Shown: positions 45,186 to 60,192 of the stretch, in pieces
Layout: every line of letters begins with the position of its first letter
Numbering within the stretch: position 1 is the first letter of the stretch
NCBI GenBank assembly: GCA_963786955.1
Contig: CAWBAT010000006.1
Location: forward strand, 256,001-320,000
From: an uncultured Acidimicrobiia bacterium
GTDB lineage: Bacteria > Acidobacteriota > Terriglobia > Versatilivoradales > Versatilivoraceae
Length of the DNA stretch: 64,000 bases
Direction of reading: 5' to 3'
Made by a program: the position numbers and the translations under genes
Notes under the pieces: generated by a model
What the model saw: the letters and a program-made list of their open reading frames with translations, nothing else
The model's database searches: none
Told to the model about the DNA's origin: nothing

Positions 45186-47516
45186 ATGCGAGAACACTTT
45201 CAAGTACGGAAAGGAATCTTTAATGAGAGGGAAACCAAAATCGACGCACAATCAAGAAGGCGTGCGATTATTGCCGGGCTCTCCACCCGTGGTCTTATTT
45301 TATGTCTCTTAGAGATCACTCCTGCAGTTTTGGCCCAGCAGAGAATTAATGGCAAGGTTGTCAACAAAAGTACGGCATCCCCCGTGGTGAACGTTACCGT
45401 GACTATTGAAAGTAGTTTACTCCCCACGACTAGAACGGCAACGACCGACAACAACGGATATTTCTCCTTCTCTTCTTTGAATCCGGGCCGCTACACCCTG
45501 AAAACTTCGCCAGACGGGTACTATGGAGAACAAATCACCTTGCTGCTAGCACCGCGTGCAACCCAGCAGGTTGAGTTTGAACTCAATCCCAAGGAATCCG
45601 TGCAGGAAGAAGTCACCGTCACCGCCAAGCCCAAATTACTGGATGAATCCCAAGCGGCTACCATGATTACCTTGGACCCTGACCAGTTCCTCGCATTGCC
45701 TACTGCCCGCCGAACACAGTTGACAGATATCATTACACCTTACGTTGCCAGTGCCGTGGGTAGTCACGACAATCTCGTCCATTTGCGCGGGAACGAGTTA
45801 TCACTCAATACCTTTATTAATGGGGTCTCTTTTTTCGATAATCCACACCAGTTGTTCACCCCTGGACTTTCCCCGGAAATCATCCAGTCCATGAACATTA
45901 TTACGGGGGGATTTCCCGCTGAGTTTGGCAATCGCTTTGGAGGAATACTGGACATTGTGACGCGTTCCGGCTTCGACGCCAATAACCACGGCAGCGTGTC
46001 GATAGGCGCGGGAGACTACCTGCGAAATAACCTCAGCTTCGACTATGGAGGCCATACCGAACGCTTTGGATACATCTTCTATGCCCAAGGATTTGAGAAC
46101 GACCGGTTCCTCAATACGCCGCAACCACTGCTCCTTCACGACTTCGGCACAGGCCTGCGGAGCTTTGTTCAACTCGACTACCGCTCCGGAAATAACGACT
46201 TCTTCAAGCTCGCATTGACCGGCGACGGAACGAACTTCGAATTGCCAAATACCAATGAAGATGAAGAACGTGGCCGGGACTATTTTCAGCGCAACCGTGA
46301 ACAAACAGCCATCCTATCTTGGGACCATACCTTTTCCGCCACTTCCGCTTTGGCGACTTCTGTCTATGAACGGCAGGTTAGCTCACGGCTAGTGCCGACC
46401 ACCGATCCCTATTCGATCGAAGCAGGCGGATTGCGCATTGACACCACTTTAGGCGTCAAGACTGACTATTCCCTTTATCTGGGTTCTCGCCACAACATTA
46501 AGGCGGGGATCGATTTAATGCACCTCAACTTGCGGGAGGATTTTTCTTTAGACCCGCGCGAGAATGATCTGGAAATTGAACCTATTGCCTTTCGCGGGCG
46601 GAATAGTGGCGGGGAAGCCAGCGTCTACTTTCAGGATCAAATCAAGTTGTTTAAGAATTTTACAGCGAACCTCGGCATTCGTTATGATCAATACAGTCTC
46701 GTCACGAGTGCGCACGCGCTCAGCCCTCGCGTGAACCTTGCTTATGCAATCCCAAGCAGTCACAGCGTCGTGCATTTCGCTTACAATCGATTTTTTGCTC
46801 CGCCTCCCATCGAAAATCTACTCCTCTCATCCGCTCTTGGGTTTGAGGGACGTCCGCCAGGGATCTCCTCCAGTAATCATTTCGAAACCGGCGTGACTCA
46901 TTCCATCAAAGATAAGCTTCTTTTGCGAATGACGGCGTACTGGCGAGGGGACATTAATGCCTTTGAGACTACAGAGCTCGCCAACGTGCGGATTTTCGTG
47001 CCAACCACCTATGCAAAAGGAAAAGCTTATGGCTTGGAGCTTTCAGCCCAATTACCCGAGATTAAACCGATCGGATTATCCGGCTACTTTGGCTTTACGG
47101 CCCAGCGAGCTTTCCTGACAGGTCCGGTTTCTGGTGGTTTCACGGTTGAAGAGATTGCACCGGGAGACATATCACCGGCGGCCTTTGATCAGATCTATAC
47201 GGGGGTCACAGGACTCACTTGGAGAGAACACCGCACTGGAATCTGGGTGAGTGGGGCTTTAGAGTATGGGAGTGGTACGCCGGCAGCGCTACTTACTCCT
47301 GAAGGAGAGAAGTCCGTGCGACTGGATCAACACCTGGTTGCCAATCTTTCTGTTGGCGTTGATTTACTCCAAAAAGAATCGCGTCGAGTGAGCCTTCAAT
47401 TCAATGCAGAGAACTGCACTAACCGGGTGTTTGCCATCGCTAAAGAAAGCGAGTTTACCCCCATCCAATTTTCGAACCCACGCTTCCTATCCGGGTCTGT
47501 GAAATTCTATTTTTGA
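45186..47516 (+). CDS. TonB-dependent receptor, probable metal uptake
   Basis: Carboxypeptidase-like N-domain; plug SHDNLVHLRG, ITGGFPAEFGNRFGG; YFQDQ, LGIRYD, LSPRVN; terminal SVKFYF. Start codon uncertain. Confidence 0.9.
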   Translation: MREHFQVRKGIFNERETKIDAQSRRRAIIAGLSTRGLILCLLEITPAVLAQQRINGKVVNKSTASPVVNVTVTIESSLLPTTRTATTDNNGYFSFSSLNPGRYTLKTSPDGYYGEQITLLLAPRATQQVEFELNPKESVQEEVTVTAKPKLLDESQAATMITLDPDQFLALPTARRTQLTDIITPYVASAVGSHDNLVHLRGNELSLNTFINGVSFFDNPHQLFTPGLSPEIIQSMNIITGGFPAEFGNRFGGILDIVTRSGFDANNHGSVSIGAGDYLRNNLSFDYGGHTERFGYIFYAQGFENDRFLNTPQPLLLHDFGTGLRSFVQLDYRSGNNDFFKLALTGDGTNFELPNTNEDEERGRDYFQRNREQTAILSWDHTFSATSALATSVYERQVSSRLVPTTDPYSIEAGGLRIDTTLGVKTDYSLYLGSRHNIKAGIDLMHLNLREDFSLDPRENDLEIEPIAFRGRNSGGEASVYFQDQIKLFKNFTANLGIRYDQYSLVTSAHALSPRVNLAYAIPSSHSVVHFAYNRFFAPPPIENLLLSSALGFEGRPPGISSSNHFETGVTHSIKDKLLLRMTAYWRGDINAFETTELANVRIFVPTTYAKGKAYGLELSAQLPEIKPIGLSGYFGFTAQRAFLTGPVSGGFTVEEIAPGDISPAAFDQIYTGVTGLTWREHRTGIWVSGALEYGSGTPAALLTPEGEKSVRLDQHLVANLSVGVDLLQKESRRVSLQFNAENCTNRVFAIAKESEFTPIQFSNPRFLSGSVKFYF

Positions 47517-47546
47517 GGCCTGTACTTCGCCAGAAACGACAAGCCC

Positions 47547-48365
47547 AGTAGCAACAGGCCTCCTGGCCTGTTGTCTGGGACAAGCATTCCCAGCTTTTGA
47601 GGGTAAAACTCTGCGAGAACAAATCACAAGAGATGCCCACTCCCACGACAGGCGTGGACGCCTGTCGCTACATAATACAGGGCAACCTTTTCAGCTCTGT
47701 AGGAGCGACCTCTTTGTAGCTCCCACCCACAAACAACGGATTTAGCTCCAGCGGAGCGACCCGTGGGCTGGTTATACAGAACTGCTTTTCATTGAGCATT
47801 CGCCAATCTATTCCCCCTTAACAAAGGGGGCGCGGGAGAGGTCCCAATCGGTTTCAATGCGCGTTTATTTGCGTTCATTCGCGGCCTATTTTTCTTTGCG
47901 TCTTTGCGTCTTTTTGCGGCTATCTAGTCTTCGCCTCGTGGTCCATACTCTATGTTTTCCGCCTTGAATTTAATACCAAGTTGCAATCAATTGGATACAT
48001 AAAGTCGAGCTTGTCTCTCCGGCGGAGGGGAATCGAAACAAGTCCCCTCTGTGGGAGGGGAAGAGGGCTTTAGCCCTCAGGGGTGGGTATGATTATTAGT
48101 GCGAGCTCGAGCATCCTGCCCGCTTTTTGTCACTAACAAACCCACCCCTACACCCCTCCAGCGGAGGGGAATTCAGATTGTCACCGTTTGAATGCAACTT
48201 GGTATAAGGGGGACATGAGGGGGGTCCGTGACGAATTGAAAAAATTCTTATTGCGTCTGATTCAGACCGAAGTTCCAGAGCTCCGTAGGAGCAACCTGTT
48301 TGTAGCTCCCACCCAAAGACAAAGCATTTAGCTCCAGCGGAGCGACCCGTGGGGCGGTTACACAG
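47547..48365. repeat. Mosaic of REP-like palindromes, an ~85-bp direct repeat and a TIR-bounded element
   Basis: Direct repeat ~47693..47779 / ~48279..48365 (AGCTC.GTAGGAGC.ACC..TTTGTAGCTCCCACCCA..TTTAGCTCCAGCGGAGCGACCCGTGGG); TIRs ATACCAAGTTGCAATCAA (47973) and TTGAATGCAACTTGGTAT (48205). Confidence 0.85.
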
Positions 48366-48581: not shown

Positions 48582-48953
48582 TTGCTTCAGATCAAACCGC
48601 TTGACCCAAGCGTTCCAATCTTTCAGCAACTCAACACCGATGTCTCACCTGTGGTCTTGGTGAATGTGTTCCAAGTCGCGGAAGCAGACATTCCAGCCCT
48701 TCTTAAGGCTTGGGAAGCGGACGCAAATTGGATGAAGCAGCAGCCCGGCTATATCTCAACGCAGTTGCATCAAGGCATCGCGGGCAGCACCGTGTTCATG
48801 AACTACGCGGTGTGGGAGTCCGTCGCCCATTTTCGGGCGGCGTTCAGCCATCCAGAATTCAAGAAGGCCTTAGAGCACTACCCGCCTTCAGTCGTGGCAT
48901 CGCCCCATCTTTTCACGCGACTCACGGTTCCGAATCTGTGTGTTGGTCCATAG
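48582..48953 (+). CDS. Antibiotic biosynthesis monooxygenase (ABM) family protein
   Basis: VVLVNVF, MKQQPGYISTQLH.G, NYAVWES; AAGGAG RBS before a TTG start. Confidence 0.85.
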   Translation: MLQIKPLDPSVPIFQQLNTDVSPVVLVNVFQVAEADIPALLKAWEADANWMKQQPGYISTQLHQGIAGSTVFMNYAVWESVAHFRAAFSHPEFKKALEHYPPSVVASPHLFTRLTVPNLCVGP

Positions 48954-49000
48954 GCCGTTTGAACAGGAGAGAGGAATACCAACCTTTAGAGGTGAAGATT

Positions 49001-49210
49001 ATGAAAACGTACACGGCTGTGGTCGAGCGTTGTCCTGACACAGGAATGTACGTGGGGTATGTGCCGGGTTTTCCCGGAGCCCACACCCAGGCGGAGAGCT
49101 TGGACGAATTGAATACCAACCTTCGAGAAGTGATTGGGCTGTTGCTCGAAGACAGAGAGCCTGGTTTGGAAGCGGAATTTGTAGGCACCGAGACCGTCAT
49201 CGTGGGTTGA
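49001..49210 (+). CDS. hicB: HicB-family antitoxin
   Basis: MKTYTAVVERC..YVGYVPGFPGAHTQAESLDEL..NLREVI.LLLE; GAGGTG RBS. Confidence 0.85.
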   Translation: MKTYTAVVERCPDTGMYVGYVPGFPGAHTQAESLDELNTNLREVIGLLLEDREPGLEAEFVGTETVIVG

Positions 49211-49323
49211 CGATGGGAAAAAATCTCATCCTTATCGAAGAATTCCTGAAACACGGTAGGTCGGCCTAACCCATTCACAGCCGTTAGCCGTGTTCTAATT
49301 CAGAGCGTTTCGAGGAAGTGCAC

Positions 49324-49707
49324 ATGTCATCAAAGAAGACACCAGCAGATAGCGACGGGCAGGACGGGATTGTTGCCGAGGCGCGGCGCTACCAGGCTCA
49401 GCGGGAGCAGACCTATCGGGAGCAAGCGCTCAAGCTCTATCCCGGCATCTGTGCACGCTGCGGCCGCGAATTCAGCGGCAAAAGACTGCGCGAGCTCACA
49501 GTCCATCACAAGGACCACAACCACGACAACAATCCACCCGACGGGAGCAACTGGGAGTTGCTGTGTCTCTACTGTCACGACAATGAGCACGAGCGGTATA
49601 AGGTTGCTGATGCGTATGGTGCGGCGACACCGGGCGGGGAGCGAGAGCCCCCTTCTACCTACAGGCCGTTCGCCGATCTCGATGCCTTATTGAAGCGCAA
49701 GAAGTAG
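49324..49707 (+). CDS. yajD: YajD-family HNH nuclease
   Basis: YREQALKLYP.ICARCGREF, LTVHHKDHNHDNNPPDGSNWELLCLYCHDNEH, PFADL. Confidence 0.9.
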   Translation: MSSKKTPADSDGQDGIVAEARRYQAQREQTYREQALKLYPGICARCGREFSGKRLRELTVHHKDHNHDNNPPDGSNWELLCLYCHDNEHERYKVADAYGAATPGGEREPPSTYRPFADLDALLKRKK

Positions 49708-49954
49708 CCGTCCCAGTGCACTATCGACAAAAACGCATGATCGAGAGCTGGGTGGGAAAGAAAAGGAGCCAGAAACCGTTTGCCCAGGCAGCCTGCACGG
49801 GGGGGCTCCCTAGAAACTTCTTCCAGGAACGGACAGTTAGGCAACCTAAAAATATTTGGCAGTACCTTTCTATTGCACGGCCATGAAACGGCATAACTAG
49901 CCAGAGGCGAAGGCCTCCAGCCGGGCCTGATGCACGACGTTGGGCAAACTTTCT

Positions 49955-50503
49955 ATGGAAAATAATCGAATCCAAATGATACTTGTCTCCGCTGCGGCTC
50001 TGTCGTTTTGCTGCCTCAGCTATTCGGAACCTCAACTCAACAACAAGAAAGAAACCACGATGGAACCTAGGATTAGTGTCATTACATTAGGCGTATCCGA
50101 TCTGGAAAGGTCTTTTGCCTTTTATAAGAAAGGCCTTGGATTCCCAACCAAAATGACGCCTGACGGAGGGATTGTAGTTTTTGCTACTTCAGGAACACGG
50201 TTGACTTTGTATTCTTATAAGAAATTGGCAGAAGACGCTGAGCTGACGGCGCCGACAATTGAGAAGGAAAAGAATAAGTTTCCTGGATTTACGTTAGGCC
50301 ATTGTGCTCGAAAAAAAGAAGATGTTGATGCGATATTGTTGCAAGCGGAGAAGGCGGGAGGCAAGATTGTGAAATCCGCTAGAGATGTCTTCTGGGGAGG
50401 ATACAGCGGGTATTTTTCTGATCCAGATGGATACTTGTGGGAGGTTGCCTATTCAGACCAATGGAAATTTAACCCGGATGGTAGCATAGTCATGGAAGAA
50501 TAG
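49955..50503 (+). CDS. VOC/glyoxalase family protein inside an integron-type cassette
   Basis: RISVITLGVSDLERS..FY, FWGGYSGYFSDPDGYLWEVA; alternative start at 50060. Confidence 0.9.
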   Translation: MENNRIQMILVSAAALSFCCLSYSEPQLNNKKETTMEPRISVITLGVSDLERSFAFYKKGLGFPTKMTPDGGIVVFATSGTRLTLYSYKKLAEDAELTAPTIEKEKNKFPGFTLGHCARKKEDVDAILLQAEKAGGKIVKSARDVFWGGYSGYFSDPDGYLWEVAYSDQWKFNPDGSIVMEE

Positions 50504-50511
50504 CAGTGAAA

Positions 50512-50572
50512 GCCCAACCAATCGCTGGAGGAACGGCGGACAAGCCGCCGTCCCTCAGCTCTAACGTTTGGC
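50512..50572 (+). mobile_element. Integron attC-like recombination site
   Basis: R'' GCCCAAC 8 nt after the stop; L'' GCTG(G)AG pairs with L' CTCAGC leaving one extra base; inner stem ACGGCGG/CCGCCGT; R' GTTTGGC; GTTGGGC at 49939 complements R''. Confidence 0.75.
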
Positions 50573-50631
50573 GCCTGCACCACCCACCGATCCGCTGCAT
50601 GACGCGATAAGGGATTCCATGGCAATGACGA

Positions 50632-50670
50632 ACGGCAAGAACACTCTCGGCCGCGTGTACGAGTACTTCG
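50632..50670 (+). pseudogene. Possible tiny remnant of type I R-M methyltransferase hsdM
   Basis: Encodes KNTLGRVYEYF, resembling the HsdM motif D.LGRVYEYF; very short match. Confidence 0.4.
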
Positions 50671-50727
50671 TCGCGGCCAGTGGCGGTCCCGGCGCACGGA
50701 CCACAACGCGCGGATCCAGCAGCACAC

Positions 50728-50969
50728 CGGCAGCGCTTTTCACTCTTGAAGGAGAGAAGATGATCCTGCTGGAACAACACCTAGTTGCCAAACTTTCTGT
50801 TGGCGTCGATCTTTTCCAGAAGGAATCCCATCAGGTGAATCAGCAATTTTATGCAGAAAACATCACTAACCGTGAGTTTGCCATCGCTAAAGAGAGCGAG
50901 TTTACCCCCGTCCAGTTTTCGTCCCTATGCTTCCTATCCGGGTTCGGGAAATTTTATTTTTGAGGCCTG
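50728..50969 (+). repeat. Diverged duplicate of the TBDR 3' end (47281..47522)
   Basis: Ungapped 242-bp alignment with about 46 mismatches by manual count (~81%), ending TTTTGAGGCCTG in both copies. Confidence 0.92.
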
Positions 50970-51146
50970 CCTCGCTAGTGGTGACAGGTTAGACAGAGAG
51001 AGGGGGAGCAGATGAGGCTCTTCCTCCCCCTATCAATCTCTTAGTGCATGCATTCGCCGCATTTAGGGTAACCGCTTTCTTTCAGGCCTCTCCACATCTC
51101 TCTTTTGGATGACCGCATTATCACCATAACATTTCGAAAAGATTCG

Positions 51147-52796
51147 CTAACGGTAAAGTGAGGCTGCAGAGCGAGCAACCCTATTCAAACTAGACCGAAC
51201 TTCATAAAGCAGATCATCCCCAGGTATACTTGGGTCCTGTTGAAGCACGTGATGCCCAAGTGCCATCGCATACTCACTAAATGCAATCTCAAAACACAAC
51301 CGGCGAAAAGCAACGTCTTCAGGTCCACTCGTTTCTAGTGCAGCCTTAACAACAGGGTGATCAAGATTAATTAATATTGTTAGTATAGCCGGATCGTATC
51401 TGGAACGGTCTTCTGTAGAACCCAAGTGCTGATGCTTTACTCGAAAACCGCCCCGCGGCATGCTCTGTTTTGATGATCCCGAGCCAGCACGGTCGACGGT
51501 CCTGTTGCCTTTATCATCTCTTGTAGCAGGTCTGACAAGGCGTGGATCGCTGCGCCCCCCTGAATTGCCAACAACTTTTAACTTATTCCTATTGTCAAAA
51601 CGGCCTGGTTCAGTTCCGCCTTCTATCCACGATTCCTCGCTACCCCCTCCAACCTGAGCACGGCCAGATCGTTGTGCTGCTGCACCCGGCGCAATGGCTG
51701 TCGCCCTTATGTCGGTCAACCGGTCCAGAAGACTTGTAAAATCTTCGTTGAGAACCTCCGCGATTCGGTTAGCCTCAGCGTCAAGCCTTCTGGCCTCCTC
51801 GGTTTTGCGAGCCTCTTTGGCACGCCGAACCAAATCGCTCCTAACCAGTTCTAATTTTGAACCGATGAACCCCAGCAGAACAGCTGCAACAGGATGCTGG
51901 GGATTCAACTGTAGTGACCTAGTAGGATCGAAAGGCTGCAATGGACTGTCAGATCTCTCTAACTCTGGAACGTCTATTTCTCCGAAGAGGTAAGTTCCAA
52001 ACTCTTTGTTCTCGACACCTGCACGCTCTACGGACAAGAGATTTCCGCCACCCGCTGTGATCGTAATACCTTGGTCCGCCTCCCTCAGTGGGGCACGTGC
52101 CACTTTGATAAGCAGCTCAACATCACCGATTACTCGAGCTTGAGATTCGGTTGGCCGGAAAGAGTGGATTGTGTCAATCTCGGGTTCCCGGTAACAGCAA
52201 ACATGGTTATTTACTGCTACCTCCGGCATTAATGCACGGAAAACTTGAAGATGACGCTCGATGTACTCAACGATTGGTTGTGTCCTTATGCGTTCCAGAG
52301 CTATGTCTTCTATAGAGATCATCGTTCCATTAGGTGTACCTACTCTCTCGTTTCGAATTTCCCATACGAGCGGGATGTCCTCTCCATTGGAATTTTCTAT
52401 TTTTTCACGCGTGAGGATAATGACGTTCCTTAGCCCCTTCCGAACTGTGTCGACTCTCAAACATCGAGCGATCCCGAAGGCAGCTGACTTCCCAGTACCG
52501 AACTTGCCTCTTCCTGGTCGACCCCGAAGACGATCAAGGTTCTCGGCATGCATTTTGAAGAAATGTTCCAGGTCCGGTTCATCCATACCGCGACCATTAT
52601 CACTTATTCTAATTATTCGTTGCTGGGGTAAAACGTCCACGACGACTCGAGGGGCAACGTTCCTGTCTACGAATTGAAGACTGTTAACTACGTACTCCCA
52701 CACAGCAGCAGCTTCAGTTTTAAAAGAAGTAGCCGACGCAAGTAGATCGCGACCGACGTGGGATGTGACTTTGATTTCTGCCAAACGCTTTTTCAT
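51147..52796 (-). CDS. GHKL ATPase of prokaryotic MORC/MutL-like type
   Basis: Bergerat motifs WEYVVNS, ISDNGRGM, GRGKFGTGKSA, NGT; then a central domain, coiled coil, Gly-rich linker and C-terminal ILINLDHP. Confidence 0.85.
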   Translation of the reverse strand: MKKRLAEIKVTSHVGRDLLASATSFKTEAAAVWEYVVNSLQFVDRNVAPRVVVDVLPQQRIIRISDNGRGMDEPDLEHFFKMHAENLDRLRGRPGRGKFGTGKSAAFGIARCLRVDTVRKGLRNVIILTREKIENSNGEDIPLVWEIRNERVGTPNGTMISIEDIALERIRTQPIVEYIERHLQVFRALMPEVAVNNHVCCYREPEIDTIHSFRPTESQARVIGDVELLIKVARAPLREADQGITITAGGGNLLSVERAGVENKEFGTYLFGEIDVPELERSDSPLQPFDPTRSLQLNPQHPVAAVLLGFIGSKLELVRSDLVRRAKEARKTEEARRLDAEANRIAEVLNEDFTSLLDRLTDIRATAIAPGAAAQRSGRAQVGGGSEESWIEGGTEPGRFDNRNKLKVVGNSGGRSDPRLVRPATRDDKGNRTVDRAGSGSSKQSMPRGGFRVKHQHLGSTEDRSRYDPAILTILINLDHPVVKAALETSGPEDVAFRRLCFEIAFSEYAMALGHHVLQQDPSIPGDDLLYEVRSSLNRVARSAASLYR

Positions 52797-53407
52797 TTCT
52801 GTCCCTCATTCACACCAAGAAATTTCGCAGCAACATCAAGAAACTCTGCAATGTCAGGATCCTCAATAAATAATCCATGCAACCTTGTGACCTTTGATTG
52901 CCGCAGTGTCTCGTCTGAATAGCTGTCTACGCGGAACAATTCGCGTGCCTCTGCAGGCGTTATCCTCCTGTTGCCAGAAGTCCAGCGTGCCCATGCTGAG
53001 GATGCAAGCAACCTTTCTCTCTCGCGGGTTCTCCTAGTTGAGTCGATTGATTTGAGCATTGACTCCGATCTATGCCTGTCAATCTGAAGGTTTGGCATCT
53101 TGGCCTTCATTGATGTAGCCCATTTCAGCCCCCGAACTGTGAGAGACCAGCCCGTTCGGCCCGAACCAGATATCAAAGCTCCCTTCATCGGCTTTTTTGC
53201 ATCCGAGAGAAATACTCGTACGAGTTCAAGATTGATCTGGTCCGGATACTTTCTCCAAACAAACCGCCCAGGGGCTAGTTCATGTGCTTTAACCGCTATA
53301 TCCTCGGTATCTAGCCGATGCTGGTCCCCACCCAAGACATAAACTGCCCACACTACAGCATCTCTCTGCGATATACTTGTCAAGGATTTTTTCTTGTTTT
53401 TTTTCAT
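52793..53407 (-). CDS. Uncharacterised protein with probable winged-HTH N-terminus, coupled to the GHKL ATPase
   Basis: AVYVLGG..DTEDIAVKAHELAPGRF.WRKYPD..VRVFLSDAKK..GWSLT..G; ATGA overlap with the ATPase start. Confidence 0.7.
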   Translation of the reverse strand: MKKNKKKSLTSISQRDAVVWAVYVLGGDQHRLDTEDIAVKAHELAPGRFVWRKYPDQINLELVRVFLSDAKKPMKGALISGSGRTGWSLTVRGLKWATSMKAKMPNLQIDRHRSESMLKSIDSTRRTRERERLLASSAWARWTSGNRRITPAEARELFRVDSYSDETLRQSKVTRLHGLFIEDPDIAEFLDVAAKFLGVNEGQK

Positions 53408-53446
53408 TGACCGAGTAATATTAATGACGGATTAACCGATAGTCAA
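53407..53446. promoter_or_regulatory. Compact divergent promoter region
   Basis: Minus strand TTGACT-N17-TAATAT, 10 nt before the ATG; opposed TTGAC on the plus strand at 53407. Confidence 0.55.
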
Positions 53447-53459
53447 GGAATTTTTGTAT

Positions 53460-55606
53460 ATGAAAGGTATTGCTCAATGGGGCTTTCGACCAACGCCCCT
53501 TCTCCCAGAGATCCTTAGAGATCGCTGGACAGGAGAACTGCCAAAATGGGTCATATCCGAGCTCAACCTGTTACCTGGATCGTCATTCGGTTCATTAGGA
53601 TCCGGTGTCTGGAAGAATTTTTCTGAAGCCGGAGTATCTGGAAGGATCCGCTCATTTCTGATTAGCGCCATAAGGAACCGCCTTGCGGAAGTAAGCGATC
53701 TCTGCCTCATAAATGAAGTATGGCCGAAGAGTTTGCTGCCCCGAGATGTTCCTTGGTCGGCACGTACAAGGAACTGCTTAGAAAAAGAAGGACTTCTCGA
53801 CGACCCAGCGAGACTCGTGAAGCTTAGGGTAAAAGACCTCTTGCGAATTCATGCTTTTGGGGCAGCATCCGTTTTGGATTTGTCTTGCGTAGCTGAAGCG
53901 GTTCTAACAGCAGGGCGGTCTCGTCCTCCTGAGCCTTCTAATGTGGTGGCCGATATTCTCTATTTGATTGAGCATGATTGGGCTGAACAGATCAGTTCTG
54001 ATGACCCGAGATTTGCAGACATAATTCCGGTTGGAAGTGGGAACTCTATGAACGGGTCGATCGGCTGACTGTTGAACCCCAGGATCCGCCATTGGAGGAG
54101 AATGAGCTTGCTGAGGCAATTCCTGCAATTATTAACCGAATTGATCAGATAAGCTCTTTGAGATTGGAAATCGCTATCATTGAATTAGTAAAAAGCATCT
54201 CACATCTTGAAGGCAAGCGCCTCCATGCGCTGGCAAGACGGCTTGGTGTCGATGGGAAGCCACCCGCAACACTTGAGCACGCGGCAAGTTCAATTGGGTT
54301 AACAAGAGAGAGGATGCGCCAGTTGCAGCAAAAATTTGAAGAGCGGCTCCCGAGACACAATCTTTTTCTGCCTCAACTTGACAAAGCAATAAAGCTCATA
54401 GAAGAAAAAGCTCCTTGTTCAAAGAAACATGTTGAAGAGGTAATACAATCGGTAGGGATAACCAATATCAAGTTTGACGTCGAAAGTATTATTGCTGCTG
54501 CTGAATTAATGAAGAGGCCCATTGCATTCGAGCTGGATGGTTCCCTCAGTCGTGTAAGACGACGAGATTCAGCTAAACTAGAACAATCTATTCGATACGT
54601 TTCTCATCGTCAGGCAAGCGCTTCCGGAGTGAGTAATGCCCATGAAGTTGTTGCTGAAATTGAATCATTAGGACTCTCTGTTACTGAGGCAGACGTCCAC
54701 GAATTCCTTCAGTCGTCACATGAGTTCGAATTTCTCGACTCAAACTGGTACTGGTATCCACCAGCCCCGCCTGATAGAAATAGGCTAAGAAACGTATCCA
54801 GGAAAATGCTCTCCGTTTCAGCTGTGATTCCTTTACCCGATCTCAGAGAAGGAATTAGGCGCCATTATCGAGTACGCACCTCTAGAGGACTTGGGACGTG
54901 GCCTCTCATAGTACCTCCGAAGGCTGTTTTGTTGAATTTCTATAAGTCTCATCCAGAGTTCTCTGTTGACTCTGAGGAGACTGTATCTTCTATTGTACCT
55001 TTGGACTATCGCAGGGAACTTAATTCTACTGAACAAATTCTTGTTGATGCTATTCGATCAACTCCAAGCCAGGTCTTAGACAGGGAAAATCTTGCGAGAC
55101 AATGCATTAACCAGCACGGGATGAACGGAAATACTTTCTCGCAATATTTGTACTCAAGCCCTGTGATAAATCATCTCGGCACGGACCTTTGGTCTTTGCG
55201 TGGTATTCGGATAGATCCGGCTTCTGTGGAAGCAGTTCGTCAAGCTAACGCTCTCAGAACCAGAGAAAAACGCATTGTCGACCACGGCTGGACGGAGGAA
55301 GGTGATCTTTGGATTGTCGCGAGGATTCCCCATGAACCGGCCAGGTTCGTACTTGGAATACCTGCACCAATTCGACATATTCTCGGAGAACAAGAATTCG
55401 TTGCAGTTGAGAACACAGGAGTCCCTTCGGGAATTATTCGGACAAACTCCGAAGGAGTTTCTTATGGATATGGGACCTTCCTAATACGTAGGGGCGCTGA
55501 TGAGAATGACTTACTTCTCGCAAAGTTTCGGCTCTCGCAAAAACAGGTCGAGCTTCAGCTTATCGATGACGATGAATTAGAAGAGATGAGTCCAACTCCC
55601 GACTAA
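53460..55606 (+). CDS. RNA polymerase alpha-CTD-like plus sigma70 region-4-like fusion protein (~715 aa), frameshift near 54040
   Basis: WSARTRNCLEKEG..VKDLLRIHAFGAASVLDL (alpha-CTD HhH) and RRLGVDGKPPATLEHAASSIGLTRERMRQL (region 4.2); no sigma region 2. Confidence 0.75.
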
Positions 55607-55731
55607 CATTTAGTGGCCAAAATATATAGACGACCAGTCCTCCAGGAACGATCATCCTGGCCAACTAGGGCAGTGGCCACCTAACCATTACAACCGTGGC
55701 CGCAGTCTATAGTTACGTTTCCAACGTGACC

Positions 55732-55850
55732 GATCTATTCTAGATCGTGATCGTACGAGACATGTGGCTCACGGGCTTTGACGCGCCGAGCTTGTACACG
55801 ATTTACGCGGAAAAGCCGATGCGCGAACACTGGTTGATGCAATCTGTTGG
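55732..55850 (+). pseudogene. hsdR: Type I restriction subunit HsdR fragment
   Basis: [36 protein letters not shown] matches the HsdR helicase motif V-VI region; in-frame TAG at 55741 and no flanking homology. Confidence 0.8.
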
Positions 55851-55960
55851 CATTGTAAATGATCAAGTCGTTACTTGCCTCCGCCTTGATAAAGTGAAAA
55901 TCAGCCCCAGCGCAGGGAACATACTCAGCGACCCAGCCGCCACCTCGATGCTCAAGCTCG

Positions 55961-56056
55961 TACAAACGCATTATGTATTGTTACGAATTACCCACGCCTC
56001 GCTTTGCTCAGCGTGGCTACCCAAGCGGGATTGTAACGCCAATTTAATGCGTTTGT
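55961..56056. mobile_element. MITE-like ~96-bp element
   Basis: TIRs ACAAACGCATTA ... TAATGCGTTTGT; second, inverted copy at 38911..39015. Confidence 0.75.
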
Positions 56057-56101
56057 TTTAGTTCATCGGGCAATCCAACGAAACAGCAAAGGAGAATCTT
56101 C

Positions 56102-57286
56102 ATGCAATCCCACCACACCAACCGTTACAGGGCCGGTCTTATCGCAGCTCTGACATTGCTGTTCTCCTCCCCGGCTATGGCCGCCGATGGCAAGACGGAA
56201 GGGGGCAACGCTGCGGTGGACCCCTTCGTCGGCCTCCAGCCGGGTCTGGGCAGCTTGCCGCTCCTCGGCCGGGGACGCACCCGGTCGATCTCGGCCGAGA
56301 ACCCGACCGGCGAGAAAGGGAAAGGGCGGCATGGCAATCCCCAATCCGACCGAGCCCAAGCCGGCGGCGAGCGCCCGGGCTGCGGACGACCTCGGCCAGG
56401 GTTGGAAAGTCCGGCCTTTCATCCGAGTCAACGCCGGGAAACGGCGGTACTCATGGATGTGGCCGGCCCGGGGATCATCCAGCACATCTGGATGGTCGAA
56501 GGATCTAAACCGCGGCCTTGTCATCCGGTTCTACTGGGATGGCGAAGAGACTCCATCGGTGGAGTCGCCCGTCCCGGACTTCTTCGCCGTGGGCCACGGC
56601 CGGTTCGCGCCGGTGAATTCCCTGGCGGTCGTGGTCAACCCCGCCAACGCCCTGAATTGTTTCTGGCCGATGCCGTTTCGGACGCGCGCCCGGATCACTC
56701 TGACCAATGAAACCGACGAGGATGTTAGTTGGTGGCCTACCAGATCACCTACGTGGAGACCGAGGTCCCTGCCGCGGCTGGCACCTTCCACGCCCAATAT
56801 CGCCGGGCAACGACGGGAGAGCAGAATCCGTACATAATCCTCGATGGCGTGAAGGGACGGGGTCGCTACGTCGGCACATTCCTGGCCTGGACCCAGATGG
56901 AGAAGGGCTGGTTCGGCGAGGGAGAGATCAAGTTCTACATGGACGGTGACGACCGGTTCCCGACGATCTGTGGCACCGGAACCGAGGATTATTCCTGGGC
57001 AGCTACGGCTTCCCCAACCGTTTACGACGGCCTACTCCGGGACGGTCCTGCCAGCTAACGAGAACAACCCACCGCCCAACTTCTGGAGCCTTTACCGTTG
57101 GCACATTCAGGATCCGATCAATTCGAGCAGGATTTGCGGGTAACGATTCAGGCTCTGGGATGGGGCGGACCCCAATACCGAAAGCTCGGGAAAGACGACA
57201 TCTCCTCGGTCGCTTACTGGTACCAGGTTGAGCCCCATGCACCCTTCCCGAAACTCCCAGCTCTCGCCGAGCGGCTCAGGCCATGA
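56102..57286 (+). CDS. DUF2961 / GH172-like secreted protein, multiple frameshifts
   Basis: TRSISAENPTGEKG, GPGIIQHIW, RFYWDGEETPSVE.P..DFF, NCFWPMPF, WFGEGEIKFYMDGD..PTICGTGTEDY, YRWHIQDP, DDISSVAYWYQ. Confidence 0.88.
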
Positions 57287-57289
57287 TTG

Positions 57290-57692
57290 GCGGGGGAAAT
57301 GAGTCGCCTCCCCCCATCGGGAGAGCGTTTCACCGAATCCGAAGACTCCGAGGCGGGGGGATTTCACGCCTGTGAATAGGACATCCCCCGCAGCCTTGCA
57401 TGAAGGCTTCTCAAGCCTTCATCCCCCTTCCAAGGGGGACTTTTTCAATTCCCCAGGGCGGCGCGCTCAAGCGCTGGCCCTGGGCTACAATCGGTGGCCC
57501 TTACAGGGCCGAAAAGTGGCTCAGCGTCAGGCGTTCTGGTAACCCCTGTGTCATCCACACAAGACAGTAGCAACAGGCCTCCTGGCCTGTTGTCCGGGGC
57601 CAACGGCCCCGGCTACAACAGCAAAACCCCACGACAGGCGTGGACGCCTGTCGCTACAAAAGACTTTCCGGGGCCAGCGGCCCCGGCTACAA
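57290..57692. repeat. REP-like palindrome cluster
   Basis: GTAGCAACAGGCCTCCTGGCCTGTTGTCCGGGGCCAACGGCCCCGGCTACA, ACGACAGGCGTGGACGCCTGTCGCTACA, CCCCCTTCCAAGGGGG. Confidence 0.8.
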
Positions 57693-57705
57693 AAAGCGGT
57701 TGTCG

Positions 57706-58986
57706 CTACTTCAGTAAGAGTCCAGCCTGCTTGCGAAGGTTGAGCTGGTTCTTTTCTTCTTCCAATTTAACATCCAAATATTGTAACCAACGACCGCTCT
57801 CTTCCCGCCGTACTTCTTCCAGCTTGGCAAGTGGAATTTTCCCTTCATCGTAACTGGCTTGGGCAACCTGCAAATTTTCACGAGCAAGCTGAGCCTCCAG
57901 AGCCGCAACCTCTGCTCTGGCTTTAAGAACCTGCAGATTTGCCAATTCGCTTTGCGTCTCCATTCGAATCTGATCGGAGCGTAATTTGATCTTTAGTCTT
58001 GCTTCATCCTGAAGGGCTTGAAGCCGGCGTTTCTCAGGATTCAAGGTCGGGTTAATCAAAGGTACTTGAATCGAGAATCCAATAGTGACGTTATTTCGTT
58101 GAAAGTTGTTAAAGTACTTGTCGTAATTATTAAACGTGCTAAAGAGATCATAGCGTCCGACCAAGTTCACAACCGGACGGAACCAGCCGTTCAAGCCTTC
58201 CTCCGCAACTTGAGACGATTTCTCTTGAAGGCGCAATTGCATGAGGGCTGGATCTCTGTCCAAGGCCGCCAACAGCAATGTCTCTTCTGACCATTCCGCG
58301 GCACTCCCCCCTGGATCCTCCGCTTTCAAGTGTTAAGGAGACGCCCGGCGCCACGCCAGTCGCTTGCCTGAGTTGCTCTTCCAGAAGTTGCAGATTCTTT
58401 TCATTGGTTGTGAGAGTCACTTTAGTCTTTGCCAATTCCAGCTTTGCCCTGGTCAGCTCGCGAGGCTGTGCAACGCCTGCCTCAACCCGGGCTGCGATGA
58501 TTTCGCGCGTTTTTCCAAGGCTTTCCAGTTGAGTTTGGTAATACTGGTGCCGCTCTCGCTGATTCCGTAAATCCAGGAAGATCCGACCGGCTTCCAGCGC
58601 TGCTTTCTGTTGCACGGATTCCACTTCAGCCTGAGAACCTTCTTCCTGAAGTTCAGCAGCATCTGCTTGTTTACGCTGATTACGATCGTAAAGCGTTTGA
58701 ATGTAATTCACATTAAACAAAGAAGGGGCCGCCCCTTCAATACTCAAGGGGAATCCGTAAGTCCCTGCGATACCCGTTCCTACGCTCAAATGGGGACCAA
58801 AAGGCGCTTTTTCCAGATCCCTTCCGGGCAGCGGCAGTCTCATGTGCCTGTTTTGGCTATTTGAACCTGCTGACTCAATTCAGAAGCACGCTCGAGAGTC
58901 CCTTCCAGAGTGAGATTCAAGGACTCAGCTAAACCCAGGCTGGGCAAACTTATCACCATCAACATGAAACCAATGTTCCTATTCAT
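57706..58986 (-). CDS. TolC-family outer membrane protein, frameshifted
   Basis: Signal peptide MNRNIGFMLMVISLPSLGLA; helical repeats ARVEAG..RAKLE and QLARENL..AQASYDEG; beta strands IGFSIQVPL. Confidence 0.78.
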
Positions 58987-60190
58987 ATCTGAGAGCCTCC
59001 ACGGGATTCAGTCGTGAAGCCCGAACCGCAGGCACCATCCCAAAAGTTAATCCCACCCCAAGGGTGACCCCCAAGCCGAGCACAATTGCCAAAGCGGGAA
59101 TCTCGATCCTAACACTGGGGGCAAAAAGTCTTACCAAGTGGGGGACTGTAATTCCCAAAAGGATCCCCACGAGACCTCCACCACCACTCAGAATCAAGGC
59201 TTCAACCAGGAACTCAATGAGCAATACCCTCCGCCTGGCTCCCGCTGCCATTTTGATTCCAATCTCCCTGGTTCTTTCTGTCACCGTAATCAGCATCACG
59301 TTCATGATCCCAATCCCACTCGCCAAGAGAGAGATGCAGGCAATGACTAAGAGAACGAGAGACAGCCCAAGGCTAATCTTATTGGCTGCTTTCAAAATTT
59401 CCGTCAAATTGTCGACTTTGTAAGAAGATTGTTTTCGGTGGCGGAGAGTGAGGAGTTGACGGATTTCCGTGGTTAAAGGGGGCACCCATTCGAGACTTTC
59501 TGCCGAGACATAGATTGCATCCACCGTATCGTTTTGTTTGAAATAGCGGATGACCGACACAGGAATAATCACACTGTGATCTGAAACTTCAGATTCCCCA
59601 AAGGTACTGACCCGCTCACGGAAAACGCCAATGATTGAAAAATTGATTCCATGCAGGGTCAGCGAGCCCTTATAAAAAGGGTCGAGCTGCAATTTGCGAA
59701 AAAGCTGTTCCGTAGCCAGACAGACTTTGCTTCGAGACCGCTCATCCTCCGAATCGATAAATCGACCTTCAAGAACTTGAATACTGCGGACTATCTGGTA
59801 ATCGGGCGTGGTTCCGATCAAGGTAATCATGCGAGGGTTCCCTTTGATTATGACTGAATCATAATCCAGGACCACCGGCGCAGCCTTCCGAACTCCCTCA
59901 TGAATGCCCTGAATGGCCCGGACATCCTCAAAGTTCAGTTTGTCGGAAAGTGTCGTGATGCCGCTCGCCGCTTCAGAAGCCTCATAATAGACATAGATGA
60001 GGTTGGATCCAATGCCTCGAATTTGATCCAGCGTATACTCCCTGCCACTTATCCCGGCGACCACAACCAGAACGAGGGAGGCCGTTCCCATGACCATACT
60101 CAAAGAGGTTAAGGCTGCTCGCCCCCAGTTGCGGCCCAATGCATTAACAGCCGATCGCAGGATTTCAAGAATTGAGAATTTGGGAGTCAC
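58979..60190 (-). CDS. ABC transporter permease, MacB/FtsX family
   Basis: RAALTSL, EGRFI, GIGIMNVMLITVTERTREIGIKMAAGA, PAVRASRLNPVEALRYE. Confidence 0.93.
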   Translation of the reverse strand: MTPKFSILEILRSAVNALGRNWGRAALTSLSMVMGTASLVLVVVAGISGREYTLDQIRGIGSNLIYVYYEASEAASGITTLSDKLNFEDVRAIQGIHEGVRKAAPVVLDYDSVIIKGNPRMITLIGTTPDYQIVRSIQVLEGRFIDSEDERSRSKVCLATEQLFRKLQLDPFYKGSLTLHGINFSIIGVFRERVSTFGESEVSDHSVIIPVSVIRYFKQNDTVDAIYVSAESLEWVPPLTTEIRQLLTLRHRKQSSYKVDNLTEILKAANKISLGLSLVLLVIACISLLASGIGIMNVMLITVTERTREIGIKMAAGARRRVLLIEFLVEALILSGGGGLVGILLGITVPHLVRLFAPSVRIEIPALAIVLGLGVTLGVGLTFGMVPAVRASRLNPVEALRYE

Positions 60191-60192
60191 CG

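Follow-up and report, generated by a model that had tools for sequence, protein, structure and literature searches.

We describe a three-gene module, found in a stretch of bacterial DNA of 64,000 nucleotides (the window), that looks like an undescribed defence or gene-silencing system. The module combines a GHKL ATPase with intact ATP-binding motifs (gene A), a small protein that is probably its DNA-binding adaptor (gene B) and a fusion protein of about 720 aa (gene C), in which an RNA polymerase (RNAP) alpha-CTD-like domain and sigma-70 region 4 are joined to some 400 aa of no recognised fold. It recurs in many environmental bacteria, is widespread and moves horizontally, and a candidate role in conflict or defence is likely.

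Table 1. Features of the three-gene locus, in window coordinates
Feature	Position	Strand	Basis
Gene A, GHKL (Bergerat-fold) ATPase, 549 aa	51147..52796	-	ORF and Pfam HATPase_c_3
Gene B, 204 aa, unannotated family	52793..53407	-	ORF
ATGA, overlap of B stop and A start (translational coupling)	52793..52796	-	
Short divergent control region between B and C	53408..53459	.	
Gene C, N-terminal piece: conserved N-terminal domain and RNAP alpha-CTD-like helix-hairpin-helix domain	53460..54068	+	
Frameshift splitting gene C, one base missing relative to the frame of homologues	54035..54044	+	
Gene C, C-terminal piece: sigma-70 region 4, then ~400 aa of no known family	54092..55606	+	

The ORF listing places the three genes (Table 1) where the initial annotation had them. 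The AT-richness it had seen is real and small: the GC content of the locus is 0.479 compared to a window mean of 0.506, and equally low values occur in 5 of 298 sliding windows of the same size. Its account of the surroundings (restriction-modification remnants, a cassette and a duplicated gene end) is only partly confirmed, by a type I REase fragment (55747-56061), an HNH gene (49318-49707) and a duplicated TonB-receptor 3′ end (47277-47522 and 50724-50969, 81% identity).

A, B and C are inherited together as a self-contained unit. Among 67 non-redundant metagenome loci found via B, A is directly downstream of B in all 57 that could be tested, and C is divergently upstream in 55 of 58 under a strict rule; C is nonetheless part of the locus in 57 of these 58, since L109 also has it and L117 has it in rearranged form. 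Of the 50 loci testable on both sides, 47 have the complete set. They are likewise adjacent in each of five genomes with a close B match (G396, G569, G687, G541 and G588), in three kinds of gene order (C/B-A, C-B-A and B-A-C), so that the co-occurrence of the three families, which the initial annotation had put up for checking, holds in both sets. In 24 complete loci the pairwise distances of the three genes are correlated (r 0.92-0.96; 0 of 999 permutations as high). C evolves fastest, with a mean distance of 0.54 between pairs compared to 0.40 for A. We found no fourth conserved gene, and no flank family is common to more than two or three independent loci.

The module is patchily distributed and occurs in roughly 1% of the genomes sampled, or fewer. 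A search of 40 relatives, from genus to class level, found no C. At E<=1e-15, B is detected in five genomes out of 401 from the phylum to which the window belongs; G000 is one of the five, and the complete module occurs in just two of them, G000 and G396. For the phyla of a Streptomyces and a Massilia genome, the B counts are 4 of 401 and 0 of 401, respectively. In a sister species synteny is kept on both sides, but a different 3.2 kb replaces window positions 50644-56040; the module sits in a variable hotspot among gene remnants.

Gene A matches Pfam HATPase_c_3 with an E value of 1.1e-14, and this domain is present in all 25 family members. The ATP-binding core spans residues ~30-144 (nt ~52365-52709), and E34, N38, D66, G70, G97, G100, T101, G102, G157 and T158 are invariant in the family. 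The C-terminal ~350 aa belong to no recognisable family, and the PDB matches of A stop at the N-terminal fold. As the initial annotation had it, neither a nuclease nor a kinase-dimerisation domain is found in A by Pfam and PDB comparison.

Gene B has no match in Pfam, NCBIfam, PADLOC or the PDB, and the description 'wHTH-like' is therefore a putative one, read from the pattern of its sequence. The family has 535 clusters in one search and 869 representative clusters at E<=0.001 (166 at E<=1e-30). A and B are co-translated partners: the TGA of B overlaps the ATG of A, confirming the coupling proposed earlier, and a Shine-Dalgarno-like stretch (GAGGGA) lies 8 nt upstream of the A ATG. Such an overlap of the two genes is seen in 51 of 65 loci and is exactly 4 nt long in 25 of them. 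One natural B-A fusion protein is known (P0213, 745 aa).

Gene C had been described as a ~715-aa protein. This length stands for the family, whose best homologues are single proteins of 715, 721, 717 and 716 aa and in which 32 of 33 complete loci encode C in one ORF, and fails for the window copy, which consists of two ORFs in different frames. The first begins at TTG 53454 in the ORF listing, and an ATG start lies at 53460. Three-frame reading and the family HMM locate a one-base frameshift: the match to HMM positions 4-199 runs as far as 54044, and the match to positions 199-718 starts in a different frame at 54041. The initial annotation gave this frameshift little weight. Unless an assembly error has produced it, the window copy of the system may not be active.

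The two pieces of the window's C fall below Pfam cut-offs (alpha-CTD, E 0.014; Sigma70_r4, E 0.075). At the family level the proposed fusion is borne out: compared with the PDB, the C profile matches RpoS/RpoD sigma-4 structures (RpoS, E 2.2e-10) and the CTD of the RNAP alpha subunit (E 7.5e-5, with alpha subunits the sole matches), and the C-terminal piece itself matches the RpoS model over residues 33-87 (E 2.5e-9). Pfam finds Sigma70_r4 in 24 of 24 family members, and RNA_pol_A_CTD in only 8 of 24 at E<=0.05. The alpha-CTD-like domain lies at nt ~53757-53879 and sigma-70 region 4 at nt ~54188-54352 (~residues 245-303 of 720). The five families listed for the 24 members include neither sigma region 2 or 3 nor the N-terminal domain of alpha. 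For the last 408 positions of the profile, no PDB structure matches with E <0.08.

Both RNAP-derived domains keep their recognition motifs. The sigma-4 recognition helix reads TRERxRQ, the same as in RpoS. In the alpha-CTD-like part, R102, G134 and S137 are invariant and N105 occurs in at least 90% of members; the motif R-x-x-N-C-L ... G-x-x-S is invariant or almost so. These positions match residues which we take to be the DNA contacts of E. coli alpha (R265, N268, G296, S299) and sigma-70 (R584, E585, R588, Q589).

The best explanation, which we hold tentatively and with somewhat less than even confidence, is that the module is a DNA-directed conflict system with C as recognition subunit, B as tether and A as ATP-dependent clamp. 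It would act as an anti-phage or anti-mobile-element defence, or in the silencing of foreign DNA. Since the residues with which RNAP binds UP-element and -35 DNA are retained in its two domains, we propose that C would dock on promoter-like DNA, or that factors directed at these RNAP surfaces would dock on C. B would tether A to DNA or to C. A would dimerise on ATP, as other GHKL clamps do, and then block or compact the bound DNA or pass it on to nucleases or helicases from other loci. Pfam and PDB comparison reveals neither a nuclease nor any other effector domain in the three genes.

A different use of the same surfaces, the leading idea of the initial annotation that C is a decoy and sensor, appears unlikely to us. 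C would display alpha-CTD and sigma region 4, which phage takeover proteins attack, and a phage protein binding or modifying C would switch on the B-A ATPase and stop the infection. C joins exactly these two RNAP modules, and its rapid divergence is expected of a sensor in an arms race. Moreover, the arginine equivalent to alpha R265 is invariant in C, and R265 is the residue ADP-ribosylated by T4 Alt/ModA. However, the conserved residues are also those of DNA contact, so our data fit both a decoy and a reader of promoter DNA and do not separate the two. The lack of a recognisable downstream effector argues against the decoy, which also leaves the C-terminal ~400 aa of C without a function.

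In G396 the module has an HmaA-like SNF2 helicase with a NOV_C domain (PADLOC E 1e-190) on one side and an HmaB-like DUF1156 methylase (E 4e-131) on the other, all on one strand. The 26 flank ORFs of six loci include SIR2_2 (adjoining A in L180), Eco57I/N6 methylases, SNF2, PLD, Mrr_N, Fic and a Pycsar-effector domain. In addition, among curated families the A N-terminus is closest to the BbrUII/HgiDII restriction enzymes, P0216 joins a B-like domain to an Eco57I-type methylase, and MORCs and paraMORCs are linked to SF2 helicases, methylases and REases in the available text of their survey (Iyer, Abhiman and Aravind 2008, PMC2292703). Together with the Hma setting and the Eco57I/N6, SNF2 and PLD neighbours, these would suit an accessory or loader of restriction-modification-like systems without killing activity of its own, in which DNA recognition and ATP-driven looping or licensing, as proposed for paraMORCs, serve helicase-nuclease and methylase genes (Hma-, DISARM-, type I/II-like), nearby or unlinked. 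We give this reading a low probability: no helicase, nuclease or methylase is conserved beside the module, which stays intact in very different contexts. N6_N4_Mtase is found in 2 of 141 metagenome flank ORFs, and Hma embedding is seen in 1 of 5 genome loci and 0 of 80 metagenome loci, a weak helicase match in L118 aside.

The B-C divergent region invites a third reading. The gap measures 46-52 nt, depending on the choice of C start codon, in agreement with the ~50 bp first noted, and the modal spacer across loci is ~52 nt. A sigma-70-like site (TTGACT-17-TAATAT) lies on the minus strand at 53446..53418, with its -10 hexamer ending 10 nt before the B ATG; consensus-type promoter sites are found in 13 of 64 loci compared to 3.7 +/- 1.9 in shuffles. 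A tight, length-conserved region with a promoter-like site suggests autoregulation. Accordingly, C could be a non-defence transcriptional switch, acting as sigma-4-type transcription factor, competitor or anti-activator for host or island genes, with B-A as its ATP-dependent regulator, like the small GHKL anti-sigma kinases that act on sigma factors. The ATPase aside, all recognisable domains are DNA-binding domains of the transcription type, and many flanks hold ordinary metabolic genes. Yet a host regulator fits poorly with the patchy distribution, the absence in close relatives and the replacement in the sister species; no target genes are conserved nearby, and A is of the HATPase_c_3 (MutL/MORC-like) type and, at 549 aa, not a SpoIIAB-like kinase. 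This makes the switch improbable.

It is very improbable that the cassette instead works for an integrative element, in its maintenance, exclusion or transfer control: the hotspot setting and the Phage_integrase domains in 4 of 141 flank ORFs would agree with it, but C was not found on 72,556 plasmids or in 50,697 phage records, B was not found in IMG/VR, and the module has no conserved neighbour of integrase, relaxase or replication type.

The defence role put forward in the initial annotation has circumstantial support, from the patchiness, the variable hotspot, the Hma embedding in G396 and the SIR2, PLD, R-M, Mrr and Pycsar neighbours in a few genomes. The methylase fusion P0216 also speaks for the conflict reading. 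Against it stand the negative plasmid, phage and IMG/VR searches and the 141 metagenome flank ORFs, which are mostly unrelated to defence and include many housekeeping genes; the families that stand out, in raw counts, are Phage_integrase 4, N6_N4_Mtase 2, TIR_2 2, SLFN_AlbA_2 2 and NYN 2.

The initial annotation could not match the module to a named system, and neither can we. It has no family-level match in PADLOC v2, NCBIfam r20 or Pfam and no system-level match in PADLOC v2, and the literature that we searched contains no description of the three genes together. The lack of a PADLOC v2 match supports novelty and gives no support for a defence role.

Mza, as we understand it, is a multigene defence locus that likewise combines a GHKL-type ATPase with a large protein bearing a sigma-70 region-4-type HTH. 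In NCBIfam, MzaA (NF041931) is a 'sigma-70 family' protein and MzaB (NF041932) an ATPase. C matches MzaA only in the sigma-4 stretch and A matches MzaB only in the ATP-binding core, with scores of ~20 bits compared to cut-offs of 800 and 850. Sigma-4 is C-terminal in MzaA (model positions 642-696 of 726), unlike its place in C, and neither B nor the alpha-CTD-like domain of C matches any PADLOC v2 model, Mza included. Mza comprises five genes, MzaABCDE, in the available part of its description (PMC11551731); since no further gene is conserved beside our module, the three other Mza genes have no counterpart.

With MORCs and paraMORCs, gene A shares an N-terminal GHKL domain with intact ATP motifs followed by a family-specific C-terminal extension. 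The module also shares their sporadic, laterally mobile distribution and, in G396, their association with an SF2 helicase and a methylase. It differs in having no conserved helicase, nuclease or methylase partner, and the accessible portion of PMC2292703 describes no sigma- or alpha-CTD-type partner for them.

Hma is a candidate system of helicase, methylase and ATPase, according to the available text of Payne et al. 2021 (PMC8565338). In G396 our module lies roughly at the expected position of the ATPase gene, but A has no HmaC match in PADLOC v2 at E<=1, and neither the other 4 genome loci nor the 80 metagenome loci have HmaA or HmaB; L180 and L118 show no more than distant helicase similarity (~26-28% identity).

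Tiamat and the GHKL-Shedu VcSduA are single-gene GHKL anti-phage defences, for which a dimeric clamp is proposed to control action on DNA (bioRxiv 10.64898/2026.09.30.754977; PMC12137116). In the sections of these sources open to us, both have a nuclease of their own (DUF4263 in VcSduA, DNase activity in Tiamat), in contrast to A, and neither has a B or C partner; A also has no TmtA match in PADLOC.

Finally, C resembles sigma-70 factors and RNAP alpha in the conserved recognition motifs of its sigma region 4 and alpha-CTD-like HhH. It differs from them in lacking sigma regions 2 and 3 as well as the N-terminal domain of alpha, in carrying both modules on one polypeptide together with ~400 aa of unrecognised sequence, and in being accessory where they are universal.

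The GHKL ATPase gene (gene A), its partner gene (gene B) and the gene for a protein with alpha-CTD-like and sigma-4 domains (gene C) form a self-contained, laterally moving three-gene unit, hereafter the module (51147-55606). The observation made in the initial annotation, namely the three genes, their layout and, at family level, their domains, holds as a whole.

The B/A junction, read on the minus strand, is ...GAGGGACAGAAATGAAAAAG..., in which A's ATG overlaps B's TGA (ATGA) and GAGGGA lies 8 nt upstream of the ATG. This combination is the usual signature of translational coupling, in agreement with the coupling proposed for the two genes. The spacer from B's ATG (53407) to the start of C measures 46 nt if C starts at TTG 53454 or 52 nt if it starts at ATG 53460, which is preceded by AAGGAA, and the divergent arrangement across about 50 bp therefore stands. 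The AT-richness of the three genes relative to their flanks is real but modest: the module has a GC content of 0.479 compared to 0.506 for the window, and 5 of 298 sliding windows of module size are equally low. The segment right of the module (55607-57500) is much higher, at 0.593. An Rfam scan of 50500-56500 found no family.

Coordinates of the module genes and of flanking features in the window
Feature	Coordinates	Strand	Remarks
Gene A	51147-52796	-	549 aa, ORF listing
Gene B	52793-53407	-	204 aa, ORF listing
Gene C, N-terminal piece	53454-54068	+	204 aa, ORF listing; frame differs from the other piece
Gene C, C-terminal piece	54092-55606	+	504 aa, ORF listing; frame differs from the other piece
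HicB-like antitoxin-type ORF	48710-49210		left of module
HNH endonuclease	49318-49707		left of module; HNH and glyoxalase part 94% identical in G002
Glyoxalase/bleomycin-resistance-family gene	49940-50503		left of module
TonB-receptor 3'-end copy	50724-50969		81% identical to 47277-47522; 131-aa ORF remnant left of module
Type I REase fragment (HsdR remnant)	55747-56061		PADLOC REase_I, E 1e-14, positions 629-667 of 1029; directly right of module
DUF2961 fragment	within 56100-57300		E 4.5e-26, model positions 2-74 of 235

Scanning metagenomes with an alignment of B yielded 80 loci, corresponding to 67 groups at 95% DNA identity, in which A and C were sought by tblastn with the window proteins. 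Gene A lies directly downstream of B in all 57 loci whose downstream sequence reaches 300 nt or more, and C is found divergently upstream of B in 55 of the 58 loci that extend 500 nt or further on that side. This rule fails in three loci: L109 has C with overlapping coordinates, in L117 C follows A on the same strand, and L152 shows nothing in its 599 nt. Of the 50 loci where both sides could be tested, 47 contain A, B and C. The B and A genes overlap in 51/65 loci, by exactly 4 nt in 25 of them, with start codons chosen by a heuristic. Clustering of the flanking ORFs of the metagenome loci (67 groups) revealed no family common to more than 2-3 independent loci and no conserved fourth gene.

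The three genes are also side by side in all five genomes with a close match to B (tblastn and hmmsearch), in the order C|B-A in L179, C-B-A in L180 and L182, and B-A-C in L170 and L181. Since the gene content is kept through changes of order, a functional unit is strongly supported. Co-occurrence of the three families elsewhere, on which the initial annotation had staked its proposal beforehand, is thus seen in metagenomes and genomes alike.

Furthermore, the pairwise distances of A, B and C in 24 complete loci correlate with r of 0.92-0.96, a value reached by none of 999 permutations, which indicates that the genes travel together. By mean distance, divergence is fastest in C (0.54) and slowest in A (0.40). 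One 745-aa protein (P0213) combines a stretch aligned to B (residues 4-173) with one aligned to A at 55% identity (residues 202-744). This apparent fusion supports a physical cooperation of B and A, with the reservation that it is one sequence and could be read-through.

The estimated spacer between B and C is strikingly constant across loci: its mode is 52 nt, and most estimates fall at 47-55. In the window it carries TTGACT-17-TAATAT on B's strand, with 10 nt separating the end of the -10 hexamer from B's ATG. Such promoter-like sites are not in excess over the whole 5-kb region (4 found compared to 4.6 expected). Within 70 nt upstream of B, a consensus-type site is found in 13 of 64 loci compared to 3.7 +/- 1.9 in shuffles (maximum 9, 200 shuffles), and in 7 of these 13 loci the -10 hexamer is equidistant from the start of B. 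From this arrangement we infer that the B-A transcript would be almost leaderless and that the promoter of C must overlap the same region, suggesting a tightly autoregulated divergent pair.

Gene C had been described as a fusion of about 715 aa joining an alpha-CTD and sigma region 4. This is true of the family, whose best homologues of the 504-aa piece (92 clusters) measure 715, 721, 717 and 716 aa and whose complete members mostly range from 700 to 735 aa, but the copy in the window is split by a frameshift, which may be genuine or an assembly error. The family HMM needs two frames of the window, one for positions 4-199, which reaches 54044, and another for positions 199-718, which begins at 54041, and a three-frame reading places the loss of one base near 54035-54037, at the codon after G-S-G. 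By comparison, C is a single ORF in 32 of 33 non-redundant metagenome loci spanning the whole gene.

Judging from the reading frames, the window copy of the module may be broken. Among the 22 public sequencing runs listed as matching the window, 20 hold at most 0.30 of its words, and contigs from four runs placed on 53300-54800 leave 53708-54064, including the frameshift site, uncovered. A second frameshift occurs within 5 kb of that of gene C: the OEP (outer-membrane efflux) gene beside macB, about 4 kb from C, is split by a one-base indel at about 58320 into ORFs 57706-58329 and 58148-58843. Its orthologue in the sister species (G002) is intact, with an open 417-aa ORF (L183 7745-8998). This second indel fits either local decay or assembly indels.

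Domain assignment in C is clearest at the level of the family. In the window pieces alone, Pfam gives sub-threshold matches to RNA_pol_A_CTD (E 0.014) and Sigma70_r4 (E 0.075), and the NCBIfam RpoS model reaches E 2.5e-9. Across the family, Sigma70_r4 is found in 24/24 members and RNA_pol_A_CTD in 8/24 (best E 7.7e-6). Searched against the PDB, the whole-family profile retrieves the sigma-4 structures of RpoS/RpoD (E 2.2e-10, profile positions 244-303), and a profile of the N-terminal ~195 residues retrieves RNAP alpha subunits only (19 sequences, best E 7.5e-5, positions 84-142). The C-terminal ~400 aa (a profile of 408 positions) has no credible match in the PDB (best E 0.084). In the ESM Atlas, a C homologue finds clusters that are unnamed or carry Sigma70_r4, alpha-CTD or HARE-HTH, with TM below 0.45 by query.

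The residues expected to touch DNA are kept in both parts. The recognition helix of the sigma-4 part is TRERxRQ, the same as in RpoS, and we take its positions to be the -35 contacts R584, E585, R588 and Q589 of sigma-70. The alpha-CTD-like stretch keeps R-x-x-N-C-L ... G-x-x-S, with R102, G134 and S137 invariant and N105 in at least 90% of members; R102, N105, G134 and S137 presumably correspond to the UP-element contacts R265, N268, G296 and S299 of alpha. C is not a true sigma-70 family factor, which would combine region 2 with region 4: Sigma70_r4 is the only such region found, and sigma regions 2 and 3 are absent among the five Pfam families in its members (n=24). In the C homologue of genome G569 (L179 7390-10698), read from a stop-to-stop frame in GC-rich DNA, the N-terminal alpha-CTD-containing domain seemingly occurs twice, profile positions about 6-156 being matched two times.

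Gene A carries the N-terminal fold and the motifs of the GHKL (Bergerat-fold) ATPase superfamily. Pfam HATPase_c_3 is found at residues 30-144 (E 1.1e-14) and in 25/25 homologues. E34, N38, D66, G70, G97, G100, T101, G102, G157 and T158 are invariant in an alignment of 25 A proteins, and we take them to be the E/N box, the DxGxG motif, the G-rich lid and the GT of the GHKL ATP-binding boxes. Given this correspondence, A is probably an active ATPase. Past residue ~200, no credible match in the PDB is obtained with the full profile of A or with a profile of its C-terminal 355 positions (best E 0.55 for the latter). The Pfam and PDB profile searches found no effector domain in A, which bears out the earlier remark that it has no recognisable nuclease.

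The curated family closest to A is that of the BbrUII/HgiDII restriction enzymes (NF050001), at 39.8 bits compared to a cut-off of 550. The alignment is limited to residues 10-196 of A, model positions 9-199 of 659, and a partial match so far below the equivalog cut-off rules out a restriction enzyme of this type. The MzaB and MutL models give about 21-23 bits, and the sole match of A in PADLOC-DB v2.0.0 (2023) is a weak one to REase_II; for C that database gave no match beyond the sigma-4 similarity to MzaA described below.

Gene B has no match in Pfam, NCBIfam, PADLOC v2.0.0 or the PDB. In the family alignment the N-terminal half of B resembles a winged helix, according to our reading of the residue pattern rather than to any tool result. 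A B homologue without an Atlas model of its own falls among unnamed clusters in the ESM Atlas, with no common Pfam family among the 30 nearest. The family is large: a word-indexed search gives 535 clusters at 90% identity, and an exhaustive search gives 869 representative clusters (50% identity) at E<=0.001, 537 at E<=1e-10 and 166 at E<=1e-30.

B-like sequences also occur in other protein contexts. A B-like N-terminus is joined to an Eco57I/N6-type DNA methylase in P0216 (680 aa), and B-like domains are fused to a DUF3102 protein in P0215 (504 aa) and carry an unannotated N-terminal extension in P0214 (455 aa). Distant B-like genes (E about 1e-20 to 1e-25) at L171 3905-6789, L172 7546-10447, L173 7520-10502 and L174 7308-10254 are followed by ORFs of 732-857 aa without a Pfam family, and tblastn did not find A or C at these four loci. 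One 745-aa neighbour of these genes has a marginal match to the A profile (E 7e-4), and they may represent a sister system with a very divergent ATPase.

Within the window's own phylum, a search with the B profile found matches in 5 of 401 genomes, including the window's own, and the only other close match is in G396. C was not found in 40 relatives ranging from genus to class. Two further phyla were chosen via a scan of genome contigs with the C alignment, whose patterns include a generic sigma-4 motif: that of a Streptomyces genome gave 4 of 401 genomes in the B profile search and that of a Massilia genome 0 of 401. Among the matches listed from the C scan, 80 loci (L002-L081) match in the sigma-4 stretch only (query residues about 190-340), with no full-length C. 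DNA searches of plasmids and E. coli genomes and protein searches of plasmids and phages did not find the module, and a search of IMG/VR with B gave no match.

The sister species is syntenic on both sides of the module, at 94% identity over 49284-50643 and 91-92% over 56041-57302 and 57697-62000. Window 50644-56040 is replaced in G002 by a different 3.2 kb (L183, G002:C15, 2421-5605), which marks the site of the module as a variable spot. The replacement encodes three unrelated ORFs of 146, 256 and 193 aa, two of which were searched against the PDB and have no relatives there. As reported initially, the module sits among R-M remnants and a duplicated gene end, represented by the type I REase fragment and the TonB-receptor copy. 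The latter probably represents a piece of a paralogous receptor gene; the TonB-dependent receptor gene whose 3' end it repeats lies at 45186-47516. The stretch 56100-57300 (GC 0.60-0.63, overlapping ORFs in several frames) is 92% identical in G002 and, being conserved there, is older than the arrival or loss of the module. Direct repeats at 47546-47678 and 57565-57664 were considered as att sites bracketing a 10-kb island and rejected, as they are REP-like with at least 50 matches in the genome on several contigs. Hairpin-containing REP-like intergenic repeats are also present at 47693-47779 and 48279-48365.

In G396 an HmaA-like helicase gene (1516-aa SNF2/ResIII with a NOV_C domain, PADLOC HmaA E 1e-190) and an HmaB-like methylase gene (988-aa DUF1156, PADLOC HmaB E 4e-131) flank the module, all on one strand. 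Pfam families among 26 flanking ORFs of six loci (L179-L182, L117 and L118) include SIR2_2 (the ORF adjoining A in L180), Eco57I/N6 methylases, SNF2 with Helicase_C, PLDc_2, Fic, Mrr_N and a Pycsar-effector domain, together with respiratory and tRNA-synthetase genes. The 141 metagenome flanking ORFs give a weaker signal and contain Phage_integrase (4), N6_N4_Mtase, TIR_2, SLFN_AlbA_2 and NYN (2 each) and many housekeeping families. These flank-domain counts, which carry no background control, suggest an enrichment of the module in defence islands.

We lean slightly towards the view that the module is a conflict system. The fuller statement, that DNA is its target in conflicts with phages or mobile elements, is held more tentatively, at a little under an even chance. 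According to this proposal, C would be the recognition subunit, B an adaptor, and A a clamp or switch driven by ATP, like MutL, MORC, topoisomerases and paraMORCs; the last have been proposed for R-M systems (PMC2292703). No effector domain is recognisable in the module, and the output could be steric, with DNA blocked or compacted, or handed to partners, as the Hma-flanked case of G396 hints. C could bind promoter-like DNA or act as a decoy mimicking the RNAP surfaces hit by phage takeover proteins. The two are not separable, because the conserved residues of C are DNA contacts and phage-takeover targets alike.

A more specific version, which we consider unlikely, is a nuclease-free immune or silencing system that recognises foreign DNA by its promoters and loads a MORC-like clamp that stops transcription. 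C would find the strong promoters of an invader with heads borrowed from RNAP, the alpha-CTD reading UP-like A/T tracts and sigma-4 reading -35 hexamers, and A, a MORC-like GHKL clamp loaded through B, would shut transcription down. If true, this would be a prokaryotic counterpart of eukaryotic MORC-mediated silencing.

In plants and animals, GHKL/MORC ATPases serve to silence transposons and viruses, but the way in which the bacterial relatives act is, to our knowledge, largely unknown. As a compact set of three genes with hundreds of variants in nature, the module lends itself to the study of such an ATPase, here strictly coupled to a protein built from the two promoter-recognition modules of RNAP. 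If the conflict-system reading is correct and the module is defensive, it would represent a new sensing principle, either promoter reading or baiting of RNAP-hijacking factors, and possibly an effector mode needing no nuclease. Pfam, NCBIfam and PADLOC v2 have no model for any of the three families and B alone comprises 869 clusters, so naming them would improve the annotation of many soil and wetland genomes.

Among named systems the nearest is Mza, reportedly from Gao et al. 2020, in which NCBIfam describes MzaA as a sigma-70-family protein and MzaB as an ATPase. The likeness does not go beyond the sigma-4 helix-turn-helix and the ATP-binding core: C scores 20.2 bits with the MzaA model (cut-off 800) and A 22.2 bits with the MzaB model (cut-off 850), and the PADLOC MzaA model matches a C homologue in the sigma-4 stretch only (E 2.6e-5). 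Mza has five genes, whereas the module has no counterparts of the other three and is compact in three gene orders. With scores far below the cut-offs and no fourth gene conserved, identity with Mza is excluded.

The module is not Hma either, since HmaA/HmaB-like flanking genes occur in G396 only and A has no HmaC match in PADLOC v2.0.0; the 80 metagenome loci contain no HmaA- or HmaB-like gene except for one weak helicase match (L118). A shares its GHKL core with MORC/paraMORC proteins (Iyer et al. 2008), in which an S5-fold domain follows that core and, in MORC proper, a family-specific motif is present. The MORC/paraMORC neighbourhood of SF2 helicase, restriction-fold nuclease and methylase is not conserved around the module, being found in one of five genome loci (G396), with scattered matches elsewhere and no flanking family kept throughout the 67 metagenome loci. 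A GHKL-Shedu of the VcSduA type is rejected for A, as no C-terminal DUF4263 PD-(D/E)xK is present in A or in 25 members and PADLOC gives no Shedu match. Tiamat was ruled out by family-model tests.

In the literature found, as far as the sources were accessible, there is no description of a triad of GHKL ATPase, B and alpha-CTD/sigma-4 protein. The initial annotation could not match the locus to a named system, and with PADLOC-DB v2.0.0 (2023), NCBIfam and Pfam neither could we. Relative to these resources and that literature, we confirm an undescribed, conserved three-gene system, which we rate as belonging with the GHKL-ATPase-centred conflict modules and as having, like Mza, a sigma-4-type partner.
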